Part shown: positions 6,104 to 25,038 of the stretch, piece after piece
Numbering within the stretch: the stretch's first letter is position 1
Layout of the letters: the number at the start of each line of letters is the position of its first letter
Notes under the pieces: model-generated
Databases searched by the model: none
What the model saw: only the letters and a program-made list of their open reading frames with translations
What the model was told of the DNA's origin: nothing
Origin: a virus
Lineage: Duplodnaviria > Caudoviricetes
IMG/VR virus record: IMGVR_UViG_3300013114_000348
Location: 1 to 32,642 of that record
Reading direction: 5' to 3' (one strand)
Length of the DNA stretch: 32,642 bases
Program-made: the position numbers and the translations under genes

Positions 6104-9100
6104 TTTATCCGTTCCTTATCATTGGTCAAATCCCGATAAAAGGTTTGGCGAATCAATCAAAGAAAACCTAGATGTCTTGCTTGGTCATCGTGGCGCATCT
6201 CTTGATCGAGCGGTAACATTTAGAGACCTTGTTAGCTCTGGGGTTGTTGCATTGCGATCAGGCGAGTCAACCTTTGATGGTAGTGCCACGTCTGTCGCAC
6301 CCGTAAATTCTACGGTCATTTATGATACTCCCCCTGCACCTACTAATCTAACTGCCAGTGGGGCATTTCAATCAGTCCTTCTCAGCTGGGACATCCAGAC
6401 CTATACGGGGCATAGCGGGATTGAAGTATGGAGACATACTAGCGACAGCATATCTGACGCGACAATGGTTGCCCAGGTAAGTGGGTACACATCATCTTAC
6501 TCTGATCCTGTTGGGGGAGGGGTAACTCGATATTATTGGGTTCGGGGTGTAAATCAGAACGGAGCATTTGGCTCATTCAATAATTCAACCGGAACGGCAG
6601 GGACCACAGTAGCTGACCTTTCTGTGGTTATGACGCTCTTGTCCAACCAAATAACAACATCAGAACTGGCTACATCCCTTGCGACACCTATTGCCAGCAT
6701 CTCGACTATCAGTGGATTGCAGACGGCATTCAGCACCTATACTGGTTATACAGCTAGCTATAGTGGTAGCAGTTTGTTGTCGAGAATTACGAGCAGCGAG
6801 ACAAGCATTACGAGCGCAAATAGCTCTATCAGCAGCTTGCAAACAACATCCAATTCGTTGTCTTCATCTGTTACGTCTTTGAACACCACGACTAGCGGAT
6901 TATCAACCAGCGTTACATCTCTTAATACCACGGTCAGCAGTCTGTCAACGACTTCAGCATCCCACACAAGTTCTATTGATGACCTGGACGACGAAGTCTT
7001 TAATGCCAACGGCACAGCTAGGCTGGCAACTTCCTCTGCCCTAACGAGCGTTCAGACATCTGTTTCCTCGTTAAACACGTCTGTCTCCAATCTGCAAAGT
7101 TCAGTTTCGGATCTTACGACAGGGGTGAGTAGTGTTTATGTCCAAGCTTCTGCTCCGACAGGGACCATCAGCACTAATAGCCGCTGGTATGATAGCGACG
7201 ATTCAATGTCGCCATATTACTACTCAGGGTCAGCTTGGGTCAGCTTGGAAGACCCTAGAATAGGGGATAATGAAACAGAGATAACTTCACTTAAAGCTGA
7301 GGTGTTTACGGCTAATGGAGGTTCCAGGCTAGCCACAGCATCCGCATTGAGTACGCTTGACACAACTGTGGTCAGTCAGGGTAATAGCATCACAAGCATA
7401 TCGGCAGATGTGACCGCTCTCAATAATTCAGTTTACGACTCATCAGGGAATTTGGAGCTTGCGACTAGCTCTGCACTGAGCAGTCTTACCAGTACAGTGA
7501 ACTCTCAAGGCGGCAGCATATCGGCAGCGCAGACAGATATCACAGACCTGGAAGCAGATGTCTACGACTCCAGCGGAAGTGTAAAGCTTGCAACCACATC
7601 AGCAGTGAACCAGCTAACCAACTCAGTTGAGGCAATCTATGACGGAACAAACGCTAGTATTGTTAAGACTATTCAGACTGATGTTTCGGCTCTAGATGCG
7701 GAGGTTTTTAACAATGACGGGACTTCTAGATTAGCCACTGGTTCCGCTTTAAGTGGGTTGACAAACACGGTTACGTCACAAGGAAGCTCGATCAGCAGCA
7801 TACAGACTGACGTGTCCGCCCTAGAGGGGCAAGTATTTGACTCAAGCGGTAATCTAGCATTAGCGACAGGTTCCGCTCTAAGCGGTGTTAGCAATACTGT
7901 CACTTCGCAAGGCACTACGTTAACGAGTGCGCAAGATGATATCAGCGATCTAAATGCAGAAGTTTTTAATGGCGATGGGACAGCCCGCCTGGCAACCGGA
8001 TCTTCAGTATCGAGTTTAACCAACACGGTAACCAGTCAGGGCAATTCAATTTCATCCGCGCAGACAGACATTTCTGCGCTAGAAGCCGATGTGTTTAATT
8101 CGGACGGAACTTCTCGTCTGGCAACTGGATCAGCGCTAACGGGTCTCACAAACTCTGTTACGGCAATTTATGACGGAACAAATGCCAGCGTGGTTAAGTC
8201 TGTTCAAACCGATATCTCAACCCTCGAAAGCGAAGTCTTCAACGGTGACGGGTCTTCTAGGCTTGCGACTGGGACTGCTTTGTCTGGGTTGACCAATACG
8301 GTCAGCGCTCAAAGTGACAGCATCAGCGGATTACAAACATCCGTATCCAGTTCACAGACCGACATATCAACATTGGAAGGGGCTGTATTTGATAGCTCAG
8401 GCAACGTTCAGCTGGCGACATCTAGCGCTCTTACTGGACTAACCAACTCAGTTGAGGCAATTTATGATGGAACTAATCCTAGTGTTATCAAGACGGTTCA
8501 GACTGATGTAGCTTCTCTTGAGGGAGAGGTATTCAATGCAAATGGAACCTCTAGGTTAGCTACAGGGTCTGCATTAACCGGATTAACGAATACGGTCACA
8601 GCAATTTATGATGGCGATAATCCCAGCACGGTTAAATCCATTCAATCAGATGTCAGCACCATCAATGGGGTTCTGTTTGATGCCAACGGCAACACTCAAA
8701 TTGCCACCTCTTCTGCAATTGCTGGAATACAGAACGATTTAGAGGTTATTTATGATGGCGAAAATGCTTCCCTTGTTAAGTCCATTCAGTCGGATATTGT
8801 TGACCTAGAGGGAGAGGTTTTCAACTCAAATGGAACGGCACGACTAGCGACAGGAAGTGCTGTCAGTAGTCTCTCTAACGATGTTACGGCAATCTATGAT
8901 GGAACAAATGCCAGTGTTGTGAAGTCTGTGCAGACAGACGTGTCTGCTATCCAAGGAGTCTTGTATGACAGCAACGGGAACGTGCAGATTGCAACCTCTG
9001 CCGCAATTGCTGGATTGTCGAATGACCTAGAGGCAGTTTATGACGGTGATAATCCCAGCATTATAAAGACCGTTCAGACAGATGTGTCCGCGTTAGAGGG

Positions 9101-16359: not shown

Positions 16360-19300
16360 ATGCCGCTATCAATTAACCGCAATAGAAATAGATTCCAATC
16401 CTATGATGAAGAGGAAGAAGAGTCTGGATTAGTATCAGAGTTCTCTAAAGGTTTTGGCGCTGGTGTTGACCAACTGCAAGCGCTTGCGGGTGGCGCTAAA
16501 GCATTAGTTGGTTCAGCTGTGGGTGATGATGATTGGTTCTACGATGGGCTGAGTTATTATAACGAGCAGATGGCTGAAGCCGCTGAGAATGCGGGTGACG
16601 TAACCAGAATCGAAGAAGTTGATGCCACGAACTGGGCATCTTATGTTGCCTATACAGTAGGTAACGTAGCCCCTAGCCTTATTGGTGCAGCTGTTACTGG
16701 TGGTATTGGTGGTCTCGCTGCCAAACAAATAACCAGGAAAGGCGTTGAAGCGTCCGTTAAAAATTTTACTGAAAACGTAGTCAAGAAGACTGCAAACAAG
16801 ACTCTCGCAAAAAAAGCTGGAGACGATTACCGAAACAAAGCATTAGCTCCCCTTATTAACGCAGGACGAATTGCTGGCGCTGGTGCTTTCTCTATGACCA
16901 TGGAGTCTGGGTCAAGCTTCACTCGATTGATGGAGGAAGACGGCACAGAAGCCCCAGGCATTGCATTAGCGACAGGGGTAGTCTCTGGAGGATTGGATGC
17001 TATAGCGCCCCTAAAGGCGTTGAAGCGGGTTCTGCCTAAGAATCTGTACGATAAAGCCAAAGACGGTATTGGCAAAGAGGTTGCCAAGAACCGGAAAATA
17101 TATCATCGAGTTGCTAGCGAAGCAGCTAAAATGGCTGGGATTGAAGGCGTAACGGAAGCCACCCAGGAGTTCATTCAGAACCTGGCTGTCGGCTATGTTC
17201 GTTCTGAGCTTAACCCTGACGATGAAGATGCCTACTATAACGCCCTATTTGATGAGACGGCTCAGTCAGCTTACTTGAACAGCTTTGTCGCTGGTGCTTT
17301 GGGTGGCGGCTCAATCGGTGGTGTAACTGGTCTGGCAAGAGATCCCGTTACCCCAGGAAGACCCTTTACAGATGAAGAGCAAGCACAACTCGATTCTTAC
17401 CCCGTTGTCCCAGTCGCTGACCCACCAAGTGAGAAGCAAGTTAGACGGGAAGAGAGACAGAAGCAACGGCTAGATGCTCAGTCTACTGGTCCCACAATTG
17501 CACCCCCCACTAGCGCAGGGCTTGAACAGGAAGGCGTAAGACAACGCATTCGCGGAGAAATGGATGGGCGAGAAGAACAAGATCGTTTAGGCATAACGCC
17601 AGCGGAAGCTCAACAGAGAGCGCAGGAGCGGCTATTCCCTCAAGCTAATGAACGTAGAGGACAAACCCAAGAAGAAGCCAGAGAGAGAACGAGAGAGGCG
17701 TTAGACGAGCAGCAAGATGTGTTTGATGATGACCCTCACGATAAGCCTGTTCTCACAAGAAAAGACCACATAGACAATAGGGTTAATCGACAAGATAAAG
17801 ACGAAGCCAGAGAGTCAGCTAGAGAGCAGCTTGACCAGATAGATGGACGTGATAGACCTTCTTTGCGTGAGGATGGGGAGACCTGGGATGAAGCCAGGAA
17901 ACGGATCGGTGATAGAACCAGAGATCAGATAGATGGTGTTCCGGAGCCTGTAACTCCGCCAGAGCCAAGCAAGGTTCCGCAGGATTTGCCTAGCATAAGG
18001 GAGCGGGTAAGGCAGATGACCCAGGAAGGATTGGGTCAGGTTCCAGCTGAAACGACTACGGTCGGGGATCAAAGAATTCCATTTGAGCAGTTACCAACTA
18101 GCGTCAAGCGTCAAATCATTAAGCAAGCGAAAGAAGAAGGCTTGGTTGTGGAGGATAATGTTGCCCCTGACACGGTTGCTGCTGCGTTAGATCAGGTTCC
18201 CGAAGGGGAGAAAGAATCTGCCGCTAATGAGGTAGATGAGTTATCTAGAATCACCCTAACGAGCGATGAAGAGAGTCGGAGATTAAAAAACCCAGGAAAA
18301 TATGATGGACCGTTAACTGATCCAAAAAAGGTTTCCTTAGCGGAAGCAATTCAGGAAGTTAATAAAAATTTAGGTGGAAATAGAACCCCGCTTTCCGAAG
18401 AGAAATTACTTTCAAAGTCTAAGATAGAGGAAGACACTGTAAGCGGAGGTAGAGAGGATCTCAAAGGCGATGACTCTCTAGGGCTGTCCGATGAAATTCT
18501 TCATGCCTTGGTGGACTTGGTCGGTGCGGGAATGCCTAAGAGTGTTTTAAACGCCATTCCCTCAATCAGGGTAAGGAATGTATATAAGGGTCGAGGGCAT
18601 GCCTCGACAGAGGAAAACTCTCCTGCGTCATACCAGGCTGTTGGTGGGCTTCTTTCGATAAGACGGGACTACCTCCGGAAAGCCGCTGTTGGGCTTCAGG
18701 AAAAGATGACAATAGGTCGAGCGCATCTCCGTTATATATTCTCGCATGAGCTTGGTCATGCCTATGACGCTCAACAGGATATCTCTAGCCAGAATCGCAA
18801 CTGGAGCGTAGAGTTCCTTGATTCCCCGAAGGGTGCAGACGGGAACATTGAATTCAATCTGAATGTGGGCAGTTTTGTCAAAGAATTATTTCAGAATTTT
18901 GAACAAGGCACAGAGCTAGGTAATGAATTGTCTTACCCTTTTGCGGAAATTTATGACCGATTGAATAACCCAATGATGGACGGCGATGATGCATTAAGAA
19001 TAGCCAGGAGCGAAAGCTTCGCTCAGTCCTTTGCAATTTTCCACTCTAATCCTGATATACTAAAAAGTGGAGCCCCAAAAACTTATGAATATTTACGGAA
19101 ATTACTCCGTGAGGATCAAACAAATGCCCAAGATAACACTCAAGCCAGTCCCGAAAACACCGATACTGGAGGAGTACTTCCAGAGGTTCAATCACAACCC
19201 CAGTCCGGAAGCAGCGAAGTTCCAGACCCTGGAGGAACGGGAGGAATTAGCGGAGATGGCTCTGTTTCGGGACAAACCAGTGGAGGCATGGGCGAACAGA

Positions 19301-22300
19301 CACCTGCACAAGACGGGGTCGATACTGGACAACCTGTACAAGAAGAGGTAGCGCCCAGGGTCCAGCAACCTCAAGCAGACCCCAGCAAAATAAGACCTAT
19401 TTATGGAGAATTTGGCGCACCATTAATTTCTGGTGAGTTTGTTGTGTCCTATCCTGACGGGGATCAACGAAGGCTCTGGCTCGATCCTGAAGAAGCAAAA
19501 AAAGTTGTAGACGAGATGGTCCAGAATGAGTCTGATCCAGACTACGGACTTGAAGAGGCGTTACCTAAACATTTTTCGACTGCATTCGCTCTCTTAAAAT
19601 CAAAGCGTCAGGCAGAGTTTGATGCATGGATTGAGAGCAGAGACGATTCGGGTGAGCCTTTCCCTAAGAAGTTTCCTGATGAAGAGATGGACATTCATTT
19701 CGATGACCTCTCCCCAGAAGGGCAAAAGATCACCTCCTCCCCTATCCTCTACGGAGACGAAGTTCCCGATGTCACGGGTACTGGCGTAAACGGCAAGATC
19801 AATGTAGCAGACGTAGGCAGAGCCTTAGATGCCCGTGCGCAGGAAGTCCTAAACGGGGGCGATCTCTCAGAACAAACTCCAGAAAACAGAGCCATTATCA
19901 GCGACATGGTTTCCCACGAAGCCGCGCTAGCCATGATCTCAACTGGCAACGCAGGAGAGTGGTATCAGCAGAAAGTAGCCAATGCGCTTGCTATTGCCGG
20001 AGAAATATTCCCTGAACTGAATGATAATGCGGGAGCCAGAACAGCGTTTACTAGCATTCTTGCAGTGACCAGTAACGGTCAGGCTGTATCGGCAAATTCT
20101 GATATCACCTTCAGGCTCTACGAGGAATTTAGAGATACAAAGAGGTTCCCAGTATTCGGGACAGGAAAAGAGACTCAAAGCATGGAGCGAGGGTTTACCT
20201 ATCTCAATGACATGCTAGATAAAGGCATGACGCTGGAGCAGATAAATACATTCCTTTCTACACCCTATACGGTAAGAGAGCTGAAGCAATTAGGTTATCC
20301 CGTTAATGGCGAACTGATGGATACCCAGGTCTATGGCTCCGCTATCTTGGGTCCAAAAATAGGTCAGGGGTTCTGGCAGAACTTGAACGGAAATTATGAC
20401 ACGCTGACCATGGATATGTGGTTTATGCGCATGTGGGGAAGACTCACTGGCACATTGCTGAAAGACGCTAAAACCAAATTGCCTGTACAGATAGAAAAGT
20501 TTAGAAAGACAGCACTGAAGGATGAGTGGAGAAACAAGCTTCGCAAAGACGGCATCAGTCGTACCAGGCTACGCAAAGACGATGAGTACGCAGAAGCGTA
20601 CGCCCGACAAGTACAGAAGGTCTATGCGGATGGCAAATTTAAGCTCAAGAATACACTGAATAAAGCTAGCAATACTTTGGTCAATAGCCAAAAGATCCAA
20701 GACGCACCTCGTAACGGAGGTGATCGTAACTACATGAGAGGCACATTTACCGATGCGCTAGATAAATTAAACGAGTTTTACCACAACGAGTACCCGATCA
20801 ATATGGGCGCTTTACAGGCGATAATGTGGTATCCTGAGAAGCAATTATACGCCAAAATGGGAGCGGGTAATGCGAAAAGCGAACCCACCGACTACGAAGC
20901 AGAGTTCACCAGAATTGCCGAAGGTCGCGGAATCAGCGGATCAAGGATACTGGAACTCGTTGGACAACAGGAACCTGGATCAGGAGGAGTACAACAGGAC
21001 GGGGTACAAGCATCTGACACCACAGTTAGCGGAGAACGTGCGCAAAATGATGGAAGAGAAGGGGCAACTGTAACCCTCGAATACCGCACCCCCGAAATTG
21101 AAGAAATCGCGGAAAAAGTCCTCTCCACCCCCAGTTCAGAAGTCCCCACAAAAGAAAAGATAGCTAGAGCCGTAGACGCAGCCCAGCCTGGAGAAGGATG
21201 GTGGTCTGGCTTCTGGCAGAAGCAAGCTCAAGGCATATTTGATGAAAGCAATCGGATAGGCTATCTAGAAAAACAACTCAATGACGGCAAACTTAAAGAC
21301 GCTTCCTCTAGCGGCTATAAGGCTACTCTGTGGTCGAAGAACAATGAGACCGTTATGCAAGCGATCTTGTACGGTGGTCCTGTTGAGTTAAAAGATGGCG
21401 CTTTCCAGCTGATTGAGGGCGAAGGAAGCTTCTACGATATATTTGAGGGATTCACCGAATCGGATCTGAGACAATGGGAACTATGGGCAGCTGCTAACAG
21501 AGCCAAGCGCCTCAAGAAAGAAGATCGTGAGAACCTGTTCGATCAGGCGGACATCGATGCCGTGTTGGCGGAAGCTAGGACCAGCGGTCAGGAAGAGCTA
21601 TACCAGGAAACTCTTGCCAAATGGATTCGTTTCAATAGGAAAATTTTGGATCTCGCGGAACAAACAGGAACCCTCAACCCTGAAAGACGTAGAGGATGGG
21701 ATCATGATGACTATGTGCCGTTCTTCAGGTTTGAAGACGAGATGGAGATCAACGATCTACAGAACGATGCGGTCAGGAATAGGCAGGGTCTAACTAATCA
21801 GGGTGTCAAGACCAAAAGATTAAAAGGCGGAGAGGGCAAACTAAACCCCCTTGAGAGTATGATTGGTCAGCTAACAACGATGATCGACAGAAGCTTTAAG
21901 AACGAAGCCATGACCCGTATTGCCAGGGACATGAGCGAACTAGGTGTAATGGAAGAGATTCCTAATACGCCAGCCAACAAAGCACTAGCAAATGAAAATG
22001 ATACGACTATCGTCAAAGTATTTGAGAACGGTGACGTAAAACTCTTCGCTGTCCATGACCCAATGCTGCTCAGAAGCATAGGTAGTCTTGGCGGCTACGA
22101 TATCAGCAAGATCAGTCAGATAACAGGCAAGGCTAAGACCGTGCTAACGCGAGGCGTTACTATCGATCCAGGCTTCATGTTCTTCAATGCCTTCCGAGAT
22201 ATTATCGCTGCGAGCATGCAGTTCCCCAATGCTCCTGGTCCACTCGATGCTTTGGCTAAAGCGACAAAATACATCGCCAGAGGTGTAGGCGAAGAAATAG

Positions 22301-23727
22301 GAATGGAGAAGGTTGACACAGAGCAGAAGCAGAACCTGTTAAAGATCATGGCATCTGGTGGAATGGCGATAGGCGATTACTATGGAACGGGCAAAGCAGA
22401 CGATATCAGAGCAGAGATCAAGCGAATTAACGGACTGGACACCACGCTTAACACCCCAGAGAAGCTAGAGAAATTCTGGGGAGACTACCTCGATGACGGC
22501 ATACAACCGTTGAAAACACTGTGGCGAAAATGGAACAAAGCGGGTCAGACGTTTGAGCATGCTAGTAGAATAAACGTCTATGAAGGCGCTCGTGCCAACG
22601 GTGAGACTCACGCAGAAGCGGTCAGTCAAGCAGCTGACGTTCTTAACTTTTCGATGCGAGGTGACTACTGGGTCATAAGAGAACTGGTGGCAAACTTTCC
22701 ATTCCTCAATGCTCGACTGCAAGGTCTCAATGTTTTAACAAGAAGCCTTAGAGATAACACTGGGCATGTTCTTCTGTCTAGAGGACTGCCTATAGCAGCG
22801 CTGAGTGTTGCCCTTTACATGATAAATAAAGATCGTGATGAATATGAGGAAATGCCAGACTATGACAAGGATCGGAACTGGCACTTTTATATAGGCGATG
22901 AGCATTACAGGCTCCCGAAACCATTTGAGCTAGGTTTCGCTTTCGCTACTTTTCCGGAACGGGTAGCAACTTATTCGATGGAGGATGATAAGGAATTTGC
23001 TCCCTATTTCTGGGAGACTTTCAAGAGCGGTATTTTCCAGACGCTGGGCATGCAGATGATGCCGCAAATCATGAACCCAATGGTCGAAAGCTATGCGAAC
23101 TATGAGCAGTTCAGAGACAAGAAGATAGTGGGAGGTGCGCTTGAGAGAGCGCCAGCACCTGAGCAGTACAATCTGTTCACTAGTGATACGGCTAAGTACA
23201 TGGCACAGAGCATGCCAGAGTTTATGCCAGATATGTACAGAAGCCCGATGAAGCTAGAGCATATGCTGAACGGCTATTTCGCTAGCTTTAGCTTCTTTGG
23301 TCAGATGGTGTTGGACCCGATTACGAGAGATCCTTCGCTGCCAGTAATGCCCTCACTCAGCCCTTCTCAATACCCTGTCGTTAAGCGCTTCATTCGCACA
23401 GATGTAAGAGGGACGAAGTACGCGGAAAAATTCTTTGACATGAGAGGTGATCTAGACAACATCCACCGATCCTACTCTGCCCTGATAAACGAAGGCAAGA
23501 ATAAAGAAGCGAAGGAGTATCTGCAAGAAAATGGCGGCTATGTCGAAAGTAGGAAAGATATCGCTAGATACTATAAAAAAATCAAAGCAGTCAACAACAA
23601 AATAAAGTTGATTTACAAGGACCGCAAGCTTTCAGCTAATCAGAAACGAGCGGCACTTAAAGCAGCGTATATTGAACGAAATGCATTATATAAGGAAGCG
23701 TTTAAGAAACACGAAAGGGCGTACTAA
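16360..23727 (+). CDS. Giant polyvalent internal virion protein: zincin-like metallopeptidase + HhH-GPD-like domain + LPD38-like C-terminus
   Basis: 2455 aa. Gly/Ala membrane-type N-terminus with 'EGVTEATQE'. HELGH (18745-18759) and ESFAQSF (19012). WY / GPK / TMDMW / QAIMW motifs (19960-20830). 'YEEMPDYDKDRNWHF...RLPKPFELG' LPD38-like motif (~22843 onward). Confidence 0.88.
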   Translation: MPLSINRNRNRFQSYDEEEEESGLVSEFSKGFGAGVDQLQALAGGAKALVGSAVGDDDWFYDGLSYYNEQMAEAAENAGDVTRIEEVDATNWASYVAYTVGNVAPSLIGAAVTGGIGGLAAKQITRKGVEASVKNFTENVVKKTANKTLAKKAGDDYRNKALAPLINAGRIAGAGAFSMTMESGSSFTRLMEEDGTEAPGIALATGVVSGGLDAIAPLKALKRVLPKNLYDKAKDGIGKEVAKNRKIYHRVASEAAKMAGIEGVTEATQEFIQNLAVGYVRSELNPDDEDAYYNALFDETAQSAYLNSFVAGALGGGSIGGVTGLARDPVTPGRPFTDEEQAQLDSYPVVPVADPPSEKQVRREERQKQRLDAQSTGPTIAPPTSAGLEQEGVRQRIRGEMDGREEQDRLGITPAEAQQRAQERLFPQANERRGQTQEEARERTREALDEQQDVFDDDPHDKPVLTRKDHIDNRVNRQDKDEARESAREQLDQIDGRDRPSLREDGETWDEARKRIGDRTRDQIDGVPEPVTPPEPSKVPQDLPSIRERVRQMTQEGLGQVPAETTTVGDQRIPFEQLPTSVKRQIIKQAKEEGLVVEDNVAPDTVAAALDQVPEGEKESAANEVDELSRITLTSDEESRRLKNPGKYDGPLTDPKKVSLAEAIQEVNKNLGGNRTPLSEEKLLSKSKIEEDTVSGGREDLKGDDSLGLSDEILHALVDLVGAGMPKSVLNAIPSIRVRNVYKGRGHASTEENSPASYQAVGGLLSIRRDYLRKAAVGLQEKMTIGRAHLRYIFSHELGHAYDAQQDISSQNRNWSVEFLDSPKGADGNIEFNLNVGSFVKELFQNFEQGTELGNELSYPFAEIYDRLNNPMMDGDDALRIARSESFAQSFAIFHSNPDILKSGAPKTYEYLRKLLREDQTNAQDNTQASPENTDTGGVLPEVQSQPQSGSSEVPDPGGTGGISGDGSVSGQTSGGMGEQTPAQDGVDTGQPVQEEVAPRVQQPQADPSKIRPIYGEFGAPLISGEFVVSYPDGDQRRLWLDPEEAKKVVDEMVQNESDPDYGLEEALPKHFSTAFALLKSKRQAEFDAWIESRDDSGEPFPKKFPDEEMDIHFDDLSPEGQKITSSPILYGDEVPDVTGTGVNGKINVADVGRALDARAQEVLNGGDLSEQTPENRAIISDMVSHEAALAMISTGNAGEWYQQKVANALAIAGEIFPELNDNAGARTAFTSILAVTSNGQAVSANSDITFRLYEEFRDTKRFPVFGTGKETQSMERGFTYLNDMLDKGMTLEQINTFLSTPYTVRELKQLGYPVNGELMDTQVYGSAILGPKIGQGFWQNLNGNYDTLTMDMWFMRMWGRLTGTLLKDAKTKLPVQIEKFRKTALKDEWRNKLRKDGISRTRLRKDDEYAEAYARQVQKVYADGKFKLKNTLNKASNTLVNSQKIQDAPRNGGDRNYMRGTFTDALDKLNEFYHNEYPINMGALQAIMWYPEKQLYAKMGAGNAKSEPTDYEAEFTRIAEGRGISGSRILELVGQQEPGSGGVQQDGVQASDTTVSGERAQNDGREGATVTLEYRTPEIEEIAEKVLSTPSSEVPTKEKIARAVDAAQPGEGWWSGFWQKQAQGIFDESNRIGYLEKQLNDGKLKDASSSGYKATLWSKNNETVMQAILYGGPVELKDGAFQLIEGEGSFYDIFEGFTESDLRQWELWAAANRAKRLKKEDRENLFDQADIDAVLAEARTSGQEELYQETLAKWIRFNRKILDLAEQTGTLNPERRRGWDHDDYVPFFRFEDEMEINDLQNDAVRNRQGLTNQGVKTKRLKGGEGKLNPLESMIGQLTTMIDRSFKNEAMTRIARDMSELGVMEEIPNTPANKALANENDTTIVKVFENGDVKLFAVHDPMLLRSIGSLGGYDISKISQITGKAKTVLTRGVTIDPGFMFFNAFRDIIAASMQFPNAPGPLDALAKATKYIARGVGEEIGMEKVDTEQKQNLLKIMASGGMAIGDYYGTGKADDIRAEIKRINGLDTTLNTPEKLEKFWGDYLDDGIQPLKTLWRKWNKAGQTFEHASRINVYEGARANGETHAEAVSQAADVLNFSMRGDYWVIRELVANFPFLNARLQGLNVLTRSLRDNTGHVLLSRGLPIAALSVALYMINKDRDEYEEMPDYDKDRNWHFYIGDEHYRLPKPFELGFAFATFPERVATYSMEDDKEFAPYFWETFKSGIFQTLGMQMMPQIMNPMVESYANYEQFRDKKIVGGALERAPAPEQYNLFTSDTAKYMAQSMPEFMPDMYRSPMKLEHMLNGYFASFSFFGQMVLDPITRDPSLPVMPSLSPSQYPVVKRFIRTDVRGTKYAEKFFDMRGDLDNIHRSYSALINEGKNKEAKEYLQENGGYVESRKDIARYYKKIKAVNNKIKLIYKDRKLSANQKRAALKAAYIERNALYKEAFKKHERAY
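19124..19351 (+). CDS. Nested +1-frame small protein (75 aa), candidate immunity/inhibitor of the preceding metallopeptidase domain
   Basis: TGAGGA RBS shortly before ATG 19124. Protein-like sequence MPKITLKPVPKTPILEEYFQRFNHNPS...LEEREELAEMALFRDKPVEAW, while the host frame here is only low-complexity G/S/Q/P linker. Confidence 0.65.
   Translation: MPKITLKPVPKTPILEEYFQRFNHNPSPEAAKFQTLEEREELAEMALFRDKPVEAWANRHLHKTGSILDNLYKKR
20870..21073 (+). CDS. Second nested +1-frame small protein (67 aa) behind the HhH-GPD-like domain
   Basis: GGGAG (20859-20863) 6 nt before the ATG. The ORF coincides with the second G/Q/S-rich linker of the host frame and ends in an amphipathic helix (LTPQLAENVRKMMEEKGQL). 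Confidence 0.45.
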   Translation: MRKANPPTTKQSSPELPKVAESADQGYWNSLDNRNLDQEEYNRTGYKHLTPQLAENVRKMMEEKGQL

Positions 23728-23882
23728 TGGAGGGGGTGACTCTTTTATCTGACTACTACGGGTTGATCCTGGGCTTCATTTCTCTGGTGATTGTCCTCGC
23801 CAAAATGCATGCGAATATAGAGACGCTAAACGAAAAAGTAAAAGTAGTATTTTCTATTCTAAACTCTCGTCGCAAGGACTAA
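23727..23882 (+). CDS. Small single-pass membrane protein (51 aa), not in the ORF track
   Basis: TAATG coupling to the giant gene. MEGVTLLSDYYGLILGFISLVIVLAKMHANIETLNEKVKVVFSILNSRRKD: one TM helix plus a short coiled coil. Confidence 0.7.
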   Translation: MEGVTLLSDYYGLILGFISLVIVLAKMHANIETLNEKVKVVFSILNSRRKD

Positions 23883-24027
23883 TTCCCTTTGCCTTTTCTT
23901 CGGCATGCTCATACGCAAGAGCGCTTACCCAACCCAGAGCCAACAAAGGAATCGCTAACGCGAACAAGAAAAAACAGAGGACACGAAATGCAAACTCTAT
24001 CGTTTCCCACATGAGTTTTATTGCCAT
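23854..24027 (-). CDS. Small membrane protein (57 aa), not in the ORF track
   Basis: AAAGGT RBS. MAIKLMWETIEFAFRVLCFFLFALAIPLLALGWVSALAYEHAEEKAKGISPCDESLE has a long hydrophobic stretch; the ORF lies downstream of int. Confidence 0.5.
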   Translation of the reverse strand: MAIKLMWETIEFAFRVLCFFLFALAIPLLALGWVSALAYEHAEEKAKGISPCDESLE

Positions 24028-24072
24028 CTTAATTTTACCTTTCTGACACTATTTTATTCTTTCTCTTTGGTC

Positions 24073-24102
24073 TAGCAACTCTGGTACAGGGGTGCTATTT
24101 TT
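24073..24102 (+). terminator. Imperfect palindrome plus T-tract: late-operon terminator and/or recombinase core site
   Basis: TAGCAACTCTG-GTA-CAGGGGTGCTA-TTTTT; the arms match at 9 of 11 positions. Confidence 0.6.
24082..24095 (+). repeat. Left copy of 14-bp inverted repeat flanking the integrase
   Basis: TGGTACAGGGGTGC is the exact reverse complement of 25061-25074. Confidence 0.9.
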
Positions 24103-24171
24103 GTGAGAATGTAAGTTAAAAGGGAAGATGTTATGTCAGAGGAAACCATTTTTTAGCCCTGGCTCTCCTTT

Positions 24172-25038
24172 TTATACCATCATTCCCTCTATGTTTTGGC
24201 TAGCTTGCGCCAAGCCTTTAGTGTCAAGATGAGCATATCTCTCCATGCTTGTTATGCTCTCCCAGCCTCCCAGTTTCTGCAAAACAGCAGCTGTTGTGCC
24301 GCTCCTCAAATGCCAAGATGCAAACGTGTGCCTAAGGGTATGAAATACCACCCCTCTTGGAAGATTTGCTGCCTTTAGAGCCTTGTGCCAGGTCTTGTTA
24401 ACCAACCCGCTAGCAGAAAATGGCTTGCCATCCTGCTTGCAGAAAACGAAGTCGCTCCTGGGGTGGCGCTGCCGCGAAGCAAGCACCTTCTTAGCTCCAG
24501 AATTGAGCGCAATAATTATACGCTTGCCGTTCTTGGTTTCTTCGCCCTCAAGTGTAAAGGCGGACAAATCGGGTTCAATCTGACTCCAGCGCAGATTCCT
24601 CACGTTTCCGTTCCTCTGCCCAGTGTTGACCGCAAACTCAACCATTGCCGCCCTTACTGGATCGAGGTGAGAGATCAATCTTTTCACCTCATCCGGCGTG
24701 AGAAATATTTCGCGCTTATTTTCTTTCAGCATTTTCATAACCGGAACACCAGAAAGCAACTCCAAATCATCTCTCGCATAATAAAGAATAGCTTTCAGGT
24801 ATCGGAAATATGCATTAACCGTAGCATTTGCCTTTCCTTCCTTCACCAAATCTTCTTTTAGACAGGTTATGAGAAACTTCCCTTTTCCTTTTTTCAGAGG
24901 ACTGAATTCCTCCAGATCAAGATCGCCAAACGTTTCTGTTAATCTAGTGATCACGGACACGGCTGGTGGTCCCAAATCGTTATCATGAGTGGTTTTCCTG
25001 CCCAGATAACGTGTCGCTACTTCATTAAATTTGACCAT
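24172..25038 (-). CDS. int: Tyrosine recombinase / integrase (288 aa, no N-terminal arm-binding domain)
   Basis: Catalytic set present: TGQR, TKNG, FHTLRH, LGGW, RYAH. Core-binding motif 'ANATVNAYFRYLKAIL'. GGAG RBS. Confidence 0.95.
   Translation of the reverse strand: MVKFNEVATRYLGRKTTHDNDLGPPAVSVITRLTETFGDLDLEEFSPLKKGKGKFLITCLKEDLVKEGKANATVNAYFRYLKAILYYARDDLELLSGVPVMKMLKENKREIFLTPDEVKRLISHLDPVRAAMVEFAVNTGQRNGNVRNLRWSQIEPDLSAFTLEGEETKNGKRIIIALNSGAKKVLASRQRHPRSDFVFCKQDGKPFSASGLVNKTWHKALKAANLPRGVVFHTLRHTFASWHLRSGTTAAVLQKLGGWESITSMERYAHLDTKGLAQASQNIEGMMV

Follow-up and report, generated by a model that had tools for sequence, protein, structure and literature searches.

Small reading frames nested in the +1 frame behind enzyme domains of a giant LPD38-containing phage gene

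Introduction

The stretch of DNA analysed here (the window; 32,642 nucleotides of the virus record IMGVR_UViG_3300013114_000348, completeness estimate 62%) carries one giant gene in which two low-complexity linkers each follow an enzyme-like domain, and in each case a second, small reading frame lies open across the linker in the +1 frame. A preliminary description, made from the letters of the window, read these arrangements as toxin-immunity pairs captured whole into a virion gene, with the immunity gene surviving as an overprinted frame. The locus raises the question of whether the small frames are genes at all, whether each belongs to the domain in front of it, and what a gene in such a position could do for a phage.

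Two sets of loci were compared. The first consists of 165 loci collected via the second enzyme-like domain (domain 2); with the window included, 103 of the 166 are non-redundant, and 24 of these 103 also hold a complete first domain (domain 1). The second set, 57 loci collected via domain 1 and one homolog of the first nested frame (ORF1), left a held-out set of 29 after training copies, duplicates and two truncated loci had been dropped; the two loci reached via the ORF1 homolog lie on contigs that were also returned by the domain 1 search.

Results

A giant polyvalent protein gene in the virion module

Upstream of the giant gene are tail, internal virion and virion structural PHROGs, and downstream of it are integrase, recombination and primase-helicase genes; the source phage is of the temperate type. 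The gene and its parts outside the two domain-linker units are as follows:

16360..23727, + strand: giant polyvalent protein gene (2455 aa), the last long gene of the virion module
16410..17350, + strand: Gly/Ala-rich conserved N-terminal region with moderately hydrophobic segments (BLAST blocks at aa ~20-330 in most close homologs; hydropathy)
19387..19680, + strand: small host-frame domain between the two units (no Pfam match; Atlas matches all <0.9)
21100..23724, + strand: C-terminal LPD38-containing region, under host-frame selection

The LPD38-like region of the preliminary description is present (LPD38 at aa 2160-2340, E 5e-33). Its 'membrane-type' N-terminus is hydrophobic but moderately so (19-residue Kyte-Doolittle peaks of 1.2-1.5), and the 'charged repeats' that it named have no long DNA repeat behind them. 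A large multidomain product (LPD38, peptidase, HhH-GPD) encoded among late virion genes places the protein with the polyvalent proteins; no MuF domain was matched in it in Pfam or PHROGs and its enzyme domains are internal, a layout other than that of MuF polymorphic toxins. The 2455-aa protein is likely to be packaged in the virion and ejected, by analogy with the LPD38-containing gp47 of phi24B, which according to the accessible text of its report was detected in virions and proposed as an ejection protein (10.64898/2026.04.10.717836).

Several smaller observations belong to the same region. In one close relative 30 bases (19651-19680) are missing in frame, which shows that the segment ahead of domain 2 is tolerant there. 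A 51-aa hydrophobic ORF overlaps the stop of the giant gene, and the integrase gene on the minus strand faces it, so placed that an attachment site may lie between the two (window 23727-25038). A scan for promoters and terminators gave nothing above chance. A third +1 ORF inside the giant gene (21527-21793, 88 aa) was judged to be a chance opening, because the region that it occupies is under host-frame selection.

A conserved small gene behind the peptidase domain

The first unit consists of the following:

18493..19107, + strand: domain 1 (aa 712-916), zincin-type metallopeptidase (MPTase) with HExxH and distal Glu
19111..19115, + strand: Shine-Dalgarno-like GAGGA of ORF1, 8 nt before the ATG (duplex energy -6.0 kcal/mol)
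19124..19351, + strand: nested ORF1 in the +1 frame, 75 aa, a conserved small protein and predicted binding partner of domain 1

The HExxH peptidase proposed at the outset is borne out: the motif (HELGH) lies at aa 796-800, the domain matches Pfam ATLF at 30.6 bits (cut-off 27.4), and the HExxH and distal Glu residues H85, E86, H89 and E174 (domain numbering) are invariant among 23 homologs. Foldseek gave probabilities of up to 0.99, with a best E of only 4e-3, and no match was found among annotated phages. By profile and by predicted structure, a small fold of sheet and helices, domain 1 is a zinc peptidase of the ATLF/PPEP type.

Linker 1 coincides, as the preliminary description had it, with a +1 ORF that has a ribosome-binding site, with one correction. 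The ORF program lists ORF1 as 19067-19351; the start codon lies 21-24 codons before an invariant His in all 24 loci of the family, and we therefore place the start of the window copy at the conserved ATG at 19124. Behind domain 1, each of these 24 loci has a related protein of 73-81 aa in the +1 frame (25-58% identity to the window copy), with 10 invariant residues, or 11 if nearly invariant ones are included. Synonymous resampling of the host codons predicts an open +1 frame in 5.1 loci, against the 24 observed, and a Shine-Dalgarno sequence (<= -4 kcal/mol) in 4.7, against 22 of 24 observed; the expected depletion of +1 stops behind the domain, together with a ribosome-binding site and start codon, was thus found at linker 1.

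The pattern of substitution points the same way. Over linker 1 the +1 frame has a pN/pS of 0.47 and the host frame one of 1.39; the core of domain 1 is its mirror image (1.25 in +1, 0.26 in the host frame). Host codon position 1 is more variable than position 3 in all 12 disjoint pairs across linker 1 and in all 13 held-out pairs (25/25 together), as compared with 0/6 pairs in the domain 1 core. Among the variants listed for ORF1 in the window's closest relatives, 6/7 are silent in +1 and 7/7 change the host residue. The +1 ORF recurs at 27 of the 29 held-out peptidase loci; one of the two loci without it has, by eye, a distant look-alike. Gene callers have annotated 69 proteins of the family, mostly on short contigs, and three of these are 80-93% identical to the window's protein with the same Met start. 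ORF1 has no match in Pfam or PHROGs, and the Atlas returned nothing usable. No RNA sequencing run was listed as carrying the locus. No un-nested pair of peptidase and ORF1 was found in the loci examined.

As far as comparison of sequences can tell, ORF1 is a real protein-coding gene, conserved in about fifty related phages, and the first unit of the window genome looks intact.

A predicted complex of the peptidase and ORF1

A model of domain 1 together with ORF1 scored 0.77 (best of three controls, 0.00). In the benchmark the complex-score mark was reached by 116 of 157 solved pairs and by 2 of 215 mismatched pairs, counts that hold only roughly for our model because it was built with its own alignments and a Zn ion. 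Its runs share at least 72% of their contacts, with a partner pLDDT of at least 68. In the model the N-terminal strand of ORF1 (residues 1-9) is paired with a peptidase strand at residues 120-127, and ORF1 also touches His85 of the HExxH motif and Gln178; most contacts fall on a strand and helices beside the active site, not inside it. The model supports the view that ORF1 binds domain 1, which is a prediction of binding and distinct from one of inhibition.

A second nested family behind an HhH-GPD fold

The second unit is arranged in the same order, with an overlap:

19777..20934, + strand: domain 2 (aa 1140-1525), HhH-GPD-superfamily fold with invariant Lys (GPK) and Asp
20860..20863, + strand: Shine-Dalgarno-like GGAG of ORF2, 6 nt upstream of ORF2 (-6.9 kcal/mol)
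20870..21073, + strand: nested ORF2 in the +1 frame, 67 aa, the positional homolog of a selected partner family, divergent here

The HhH-GPD-like domain suggested earlier was recovered by structure comparison. The model of domain 2 (pLDDT 94.7), a helical fold of two lobes with a helix-hairpin-helix, gave, by VIA-align, a top Z of 10.2 (rmsd 4.3 over 193 aligned residues), and all 23 chains with Z >=5 are HhH-type glycosylases or their relatives, a fold that includes non-DNA enzymes; Foldseek and a sequence-profile search of the PDB returned nothing. In 73 homologs K194 (of GPK) and, 19 residues on, D213 do not vary, and on the pattern of EndoIII and OGG these may be the catalytic Lys and Asp. 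On fold and conserved residues domain 2 is likely to be a DNA glycosylase/lyase. Its core is constrained in the host frame (pN/pS 0.23; host position 1 more variable than position 3 in 0/12 disjoint pairs).

The start of ORF2 falls inside the last ~20 codons of domain 2. Across linker 2 of the 25 closest loci, pN/pS is 0.40 in +1 and 1.70 in the host frame, and host position 1 is more variable than position 3 in 10/11 disjoint pairs of the close clade; among 19 distant pairs, 12 are for and 5 against (p 0.14). The substitution pattern in the close clade indicates that the ORF2 family is under selection in the +1 frame there. ORF2 matches nothing in Pfam or PHROGs.

The window's own copy is a different matter. 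It retains its ATG, its Shine-Dalgarno sequence and an open frame; compared with its 24 nearest homologs it reaches an E of 0.95, and its clade is tied to the un-nested clade described below by a weak link (hhalign probability 35%, E 4e-4). Of ten variants in close relatives, three are silent in +1 and five in the host frame. The reading of linker 2 as a selected gene with a Shine-Dalgarno sequence thus stands for the close clade; in the window's closest relatives these ten variants show no such selection, and the window's ORF2 may be decaying or losing constraint.

One branch of the family also occurs outside giant genes. A profile made solely from 11 nested ORF2s of this branch matches the gene that follows 13 of 25 glycosylase genes (E <1e-4); these 25 genes end at the domain or at most 75 residues beyond it. 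Relative to the glycosylase, eight of the 13 partner matches are in +2, four in +1 and one is fused in frame. The un-nested pairs lie between the portal and scaffold genes of head modules, which is the MuF position, or at the end of internal virion proteins. In this branch ORF2 is an ordinary downstream gene behind a stop-terminated enzyme gene. A small cognate gene directly downstream of an enzyme domain, the arrangement by which toxin-immunity pairs are recognised, is what was found.

On a tree of domain 2, nested and terminal forms change into one another eight times, at least two of them forced; the tree is quick, unrooted and accompanied by long-branch warnings, and it therefore gives no order of events. 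Capture of the pairs as cassettes, in one direction or the other, is plausible.

Individual genomes show variants of these layouts. The cultured Limnohabitans phage DC33 (PQ492659.1; L166:8172-8387) has an unannotated +1 ORF with a Shine-Dalgarno energy of -8.3 kcal/mol after its domain 2 homolog. MW202722.1 carries three unannotated +1 ORFs in one giant gene (L167:7289-7477, 8024-8170 and 8174-8359), two of them back to back and all with strong Shine-Dalgarno sequences (-7.8 to -12.2). In L051:7734-9353, from a phage with tail-sheath genes, a glycosylase has a partner-like segment fused in frame at its C-terminus. In the head modules of L064 (431-3194), L059 and L145 the scaffold gene is preceded by a glycosylase gene whose N-terminus bears a short NPxEARD-like motif; the partner in L064 is part of a fusion with a head-morphogenesis (MuF-like) remnant, and before it stands a second gene with a similar N-terminus. 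In L141, L086, L039 and L166 the nested ORF2 continues at its C-terminus into another small domain, which is helical and has a YPDAS/NPGLT-like motif.

Linker composition and chance openings

Both linkers are G/S/Q-rich, as first noticed (fractions of 0.45 and 0.43, against 0.19 for the whole protein). That such linkers are what an ordinary Glu-rich gene looks like when read out of frame holds in part: ordinary genes read in the -1 frame do lose their hydrophobic residues, but their G/S/Q fraction is 0.24 as compared with 0.39-0.45, and the compositional argument is therefore only part of the story.

A +1 ORF with a Shine-Dalgarno sequence is, moreover, common by chance. Control genes contain about one of at least 40 aa per 1000 aa, so that the raw observation is weak and the comparative data must carry the case. 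In 74 polyvalent genes the raw count shows a modest excess (227 against 159-172 after shuffling), and in 137 other long ORFs it shows none (106 against 94-106). Given the host residues, the chance that the +1 frame stays open over the length of ORF1 is 0.21. For both window ORFs a codon Markov model preferred the host frame, and among 79 family members it chose +1 in only 16; the model did not discriminate.

Because chance openings are so frequent, we scanned 90 long genes for frame-flipped variation with no prior positions. The peaks cover 1277 of 126,057 scored residues and fall on linker 1, on linker 2, on a third family and on one stray position. In the third family a +1 ORF with a Shine-Dalgarno sequence follows an unnamed GGW-motif domain of ~130 aa at 12 of 12 loci (L129, L034, L052, L004 and eight more), several of which are near-copies; its substitution test gave 3 against 2 pairs. 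ART-PolyVal domains had no +1 partner ORF in any of seven cases.

The pairing of partner and domain thus appears to be domain-specific by sequence comparison. Of the preliminary claims, that of nested frames conserved in +1 and tied to a particular upstream domain is upheld by the peptidase (27/29) and third-domain (12/12) loci, and the frame-specific comparison that it called for came out in favour of +1 at linker 1. A partner does not accompany all enzyme domains, as the ART-PolyVal domains (0/7) show. The term 'overprinted' is ill-suited, since the evidence suggests that it is the host linker, rather than the small gene, that is free of constraint; on their substitution patterns, the constrained reading of the linker DNA is that of ORF1 and of the ORF2 family.

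ORF1-like proteins read in their own frame

Among 1.84 billion representatives searched, 80 proteins resemble ORF1; ~20 of them are longer (147-364 aa) and are read in their own frame. These contain tandem copies or fusions to hydrophobic membrane-like segments or to T5orf172, and one cluster includes a protein from a Pseudomonadales genome:

Long ORF1-domain proteins: P0211, P0212, P0213, P0214, P0217, P0218, P0221, P0235, P0239, P0244, P0247, P0248, P0256, P0274, P0278

One or two of the long proteins look like frameshift or assembly chimeras. Their loci were found neither in viral contigs nor in 401 sampled genomes of one order, and 202 genomes of one family gave a single broken copy. The long proteins may be host captures, serving as decoys or sensors.

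Discussion

A proposed model of the nested cassettes

The reading that we favour, and hold to be reasonably probable, is that the giant gene is built of cassettes, each an enzyme domain with a +1 partner, in which the partner likely silences its own domain during synthesis and the protein is packaged and delivered without it. The host frame over the linkers must remain open, and gives a hydrophilic, low-complexity tether. Initiation at the internal Shine-Dalgarno sequence on the late mRNA would produce partner and enzyme together, each domain would be silenced by its partner inside the producing cell, and the giant protein would then be packaged and ejected into the next cell with the partner left behind. 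ORF1 would prevent premature cleavage of the polyprotein or of cell proteins by the peptidase, and partners of the ORF2 type would protect replicating DNA against the glycosylase. With the partner inside the cassette, the pair could shift between virion genes as a unit. In the accessible text of Iyer et al. self-processing is proposed as a main role of such peptidases (PMC5512222), and on that view ORF1 may guard the polyprotein rather than the cell.

The nested proteins may instead be real and binding, and yet accompany the giant protein as chaperones, activators or co-packaged subunits, a reading to which we give a minor but appreciable share. The sequence evidence and the complex model fit it equally well, most of the modelled contacts lie beside the active site, and the L051 glycosylase has its partner-like segment fused in frame. 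Against this, the model also contacts His85 of the HExxH motif and Gln178, and toxin-immunity pairs, as the accessible text of PMC12226406 describes them, have this layout, with a small gene immediately behind an enzyme that ends a virion or MuF-position gene; separate translation would also be more useful for a protein that is not to be delivered. A looser relation, in which the nested genes are translated and hitchhike by linkage with a domain to which they are unrelated, seems improbable to us: physical linkage by itself keeps neighbours together, and ORF1-like domains also occur in unrelated longer proteins, but the near-universal, domain-specific pairing persists across different giant-gene architectures, and the complex model lies well above its controls.

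Readings that deny a separate small gene fare worse. Linkers poor in Leu, Ile, Val and Met lack +1 stops by default (hence the probability of 0.21 for an opening of ORF1 length), and the codon model offers no support for +1 coding, so that the frames could be untranslated relics of swallowed genes or by-products of hydrophilic linker composition. This may fit the window's own ORF2; as a general account we think it scarcely probable, and for ORF1 very unlikely, given that close pairs, and the window's own ORF1 lineage, are still under +1 selection, that the start is fixed and preceded by a Shine-Dalgarno sequence, and that at about 30-50% identity 11 residues are invariant or nearly so. Tail-gene frameshifts are common among phages, and with the one in-frame fusion in L051 they might suggest that ribosomes enter the +1 frame by programmed frameshifting and so make a truncated giant protein with the partner sequence at its end. 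A +1 stop lies at most three codons upstream of the ORF1 start in 8/24 loci, which argues against a frameshift product, and the Shine-Dalgarno sequence and start are kept at a fixed distance; we regard this last account as barely credible.

Returning to the cassettes with silencing partners, a broader form of that reading can be put forward tentatively, at a little under an even chance: that the gene of a phage polyvalent ejection protein is in effect a hidden operon composed of movable effector-inhibitor cassettes, in which a +1 inhibitor gene behind each dangerous domain marks the domains that would harm the producer, and that marine bacteria may have captured the peptidase-binding domain (in the membrane and T5orf172 fusions) as a decoy or sensor for the ejected peptidase. 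The results point to a family-wide layer of small phage genes missed by annotation, and would explain how multi-enzyme virion proteins could gain domains without harming the producer cell. The presence or absence of a nested partner would allow the polyvalent domains that need silencing to be told from sequence, which makes domain function testable, and the nested families are likely to yield new small inhibitors, both of zinc peptidases and of HhH glycosylases.

Comparison with known systems

Small genes with their own start in another frame inside a longer gene are familiar from Rz1 in Rz of lambda (the products of which interact), E of phiX174 and comS in srfAB of B. subtilis. Those are single fixed pairs, whereas in the giant genes the partner family varies with the domain in front of it, domain and partner forming a movable cassette, and the host-frame linker that overlies the partner appears to be unconstrained. 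The closest likeness in layout is engineered: in overlapping alternate-frame insertion (OAFI) an inner gene with its own ribosome-binding site is placed in another frame within a tolerant outer region, and both genes are expressed (10.1101/2024.11.07.622342), so that such a layout is workable. OAFI is synthetic, its accessible text describes no natural modular case, and the cassettes would be its natural counterpart. The out-of-frame remodelled genes of E. coli, 53 families of which are phage-associated, likewise gain new sequence by reading across a neighbour in another frame (PMC8788219); the accessible text of that work, a general survey, does not describe enzyme-partner cassettes in virion proteins.

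Among phage proteins, the nearest are the polyvalent proteins of Iyer et al. (2017), large late-gene products that combine LPD38, listed as phage-specific, with an HExxH MPTase and that were proposed to be delivered at invasion (PMC5512222). In its accessible text nested partner genes are not described and HhH-GPD is not named among the polyvalent domains, and the words 'overlap' and 'linker' are absent from the main text. A full-text search of the literature, covering main texts and few subscription papers, found no description of nested partner genes in polyvalent proteins, in agreement with the preliminary description, which knew of none. The MuF polymorphic toxins share a virion-associated enzyme of temperate phages with a small cognate partner gene directly downstream (PMC12226406, in its accessible text). 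The giant gene differs in having its enzyme domains internal and their partners nested in another frame, in combining several cassettes and in lacking a MuF domain, and the toxicity of its enzymes is putative. The architecture is real and apparently undescribed; it combines known elements, and resembles a toxin-immunity cassette rather than a MuF toxin.
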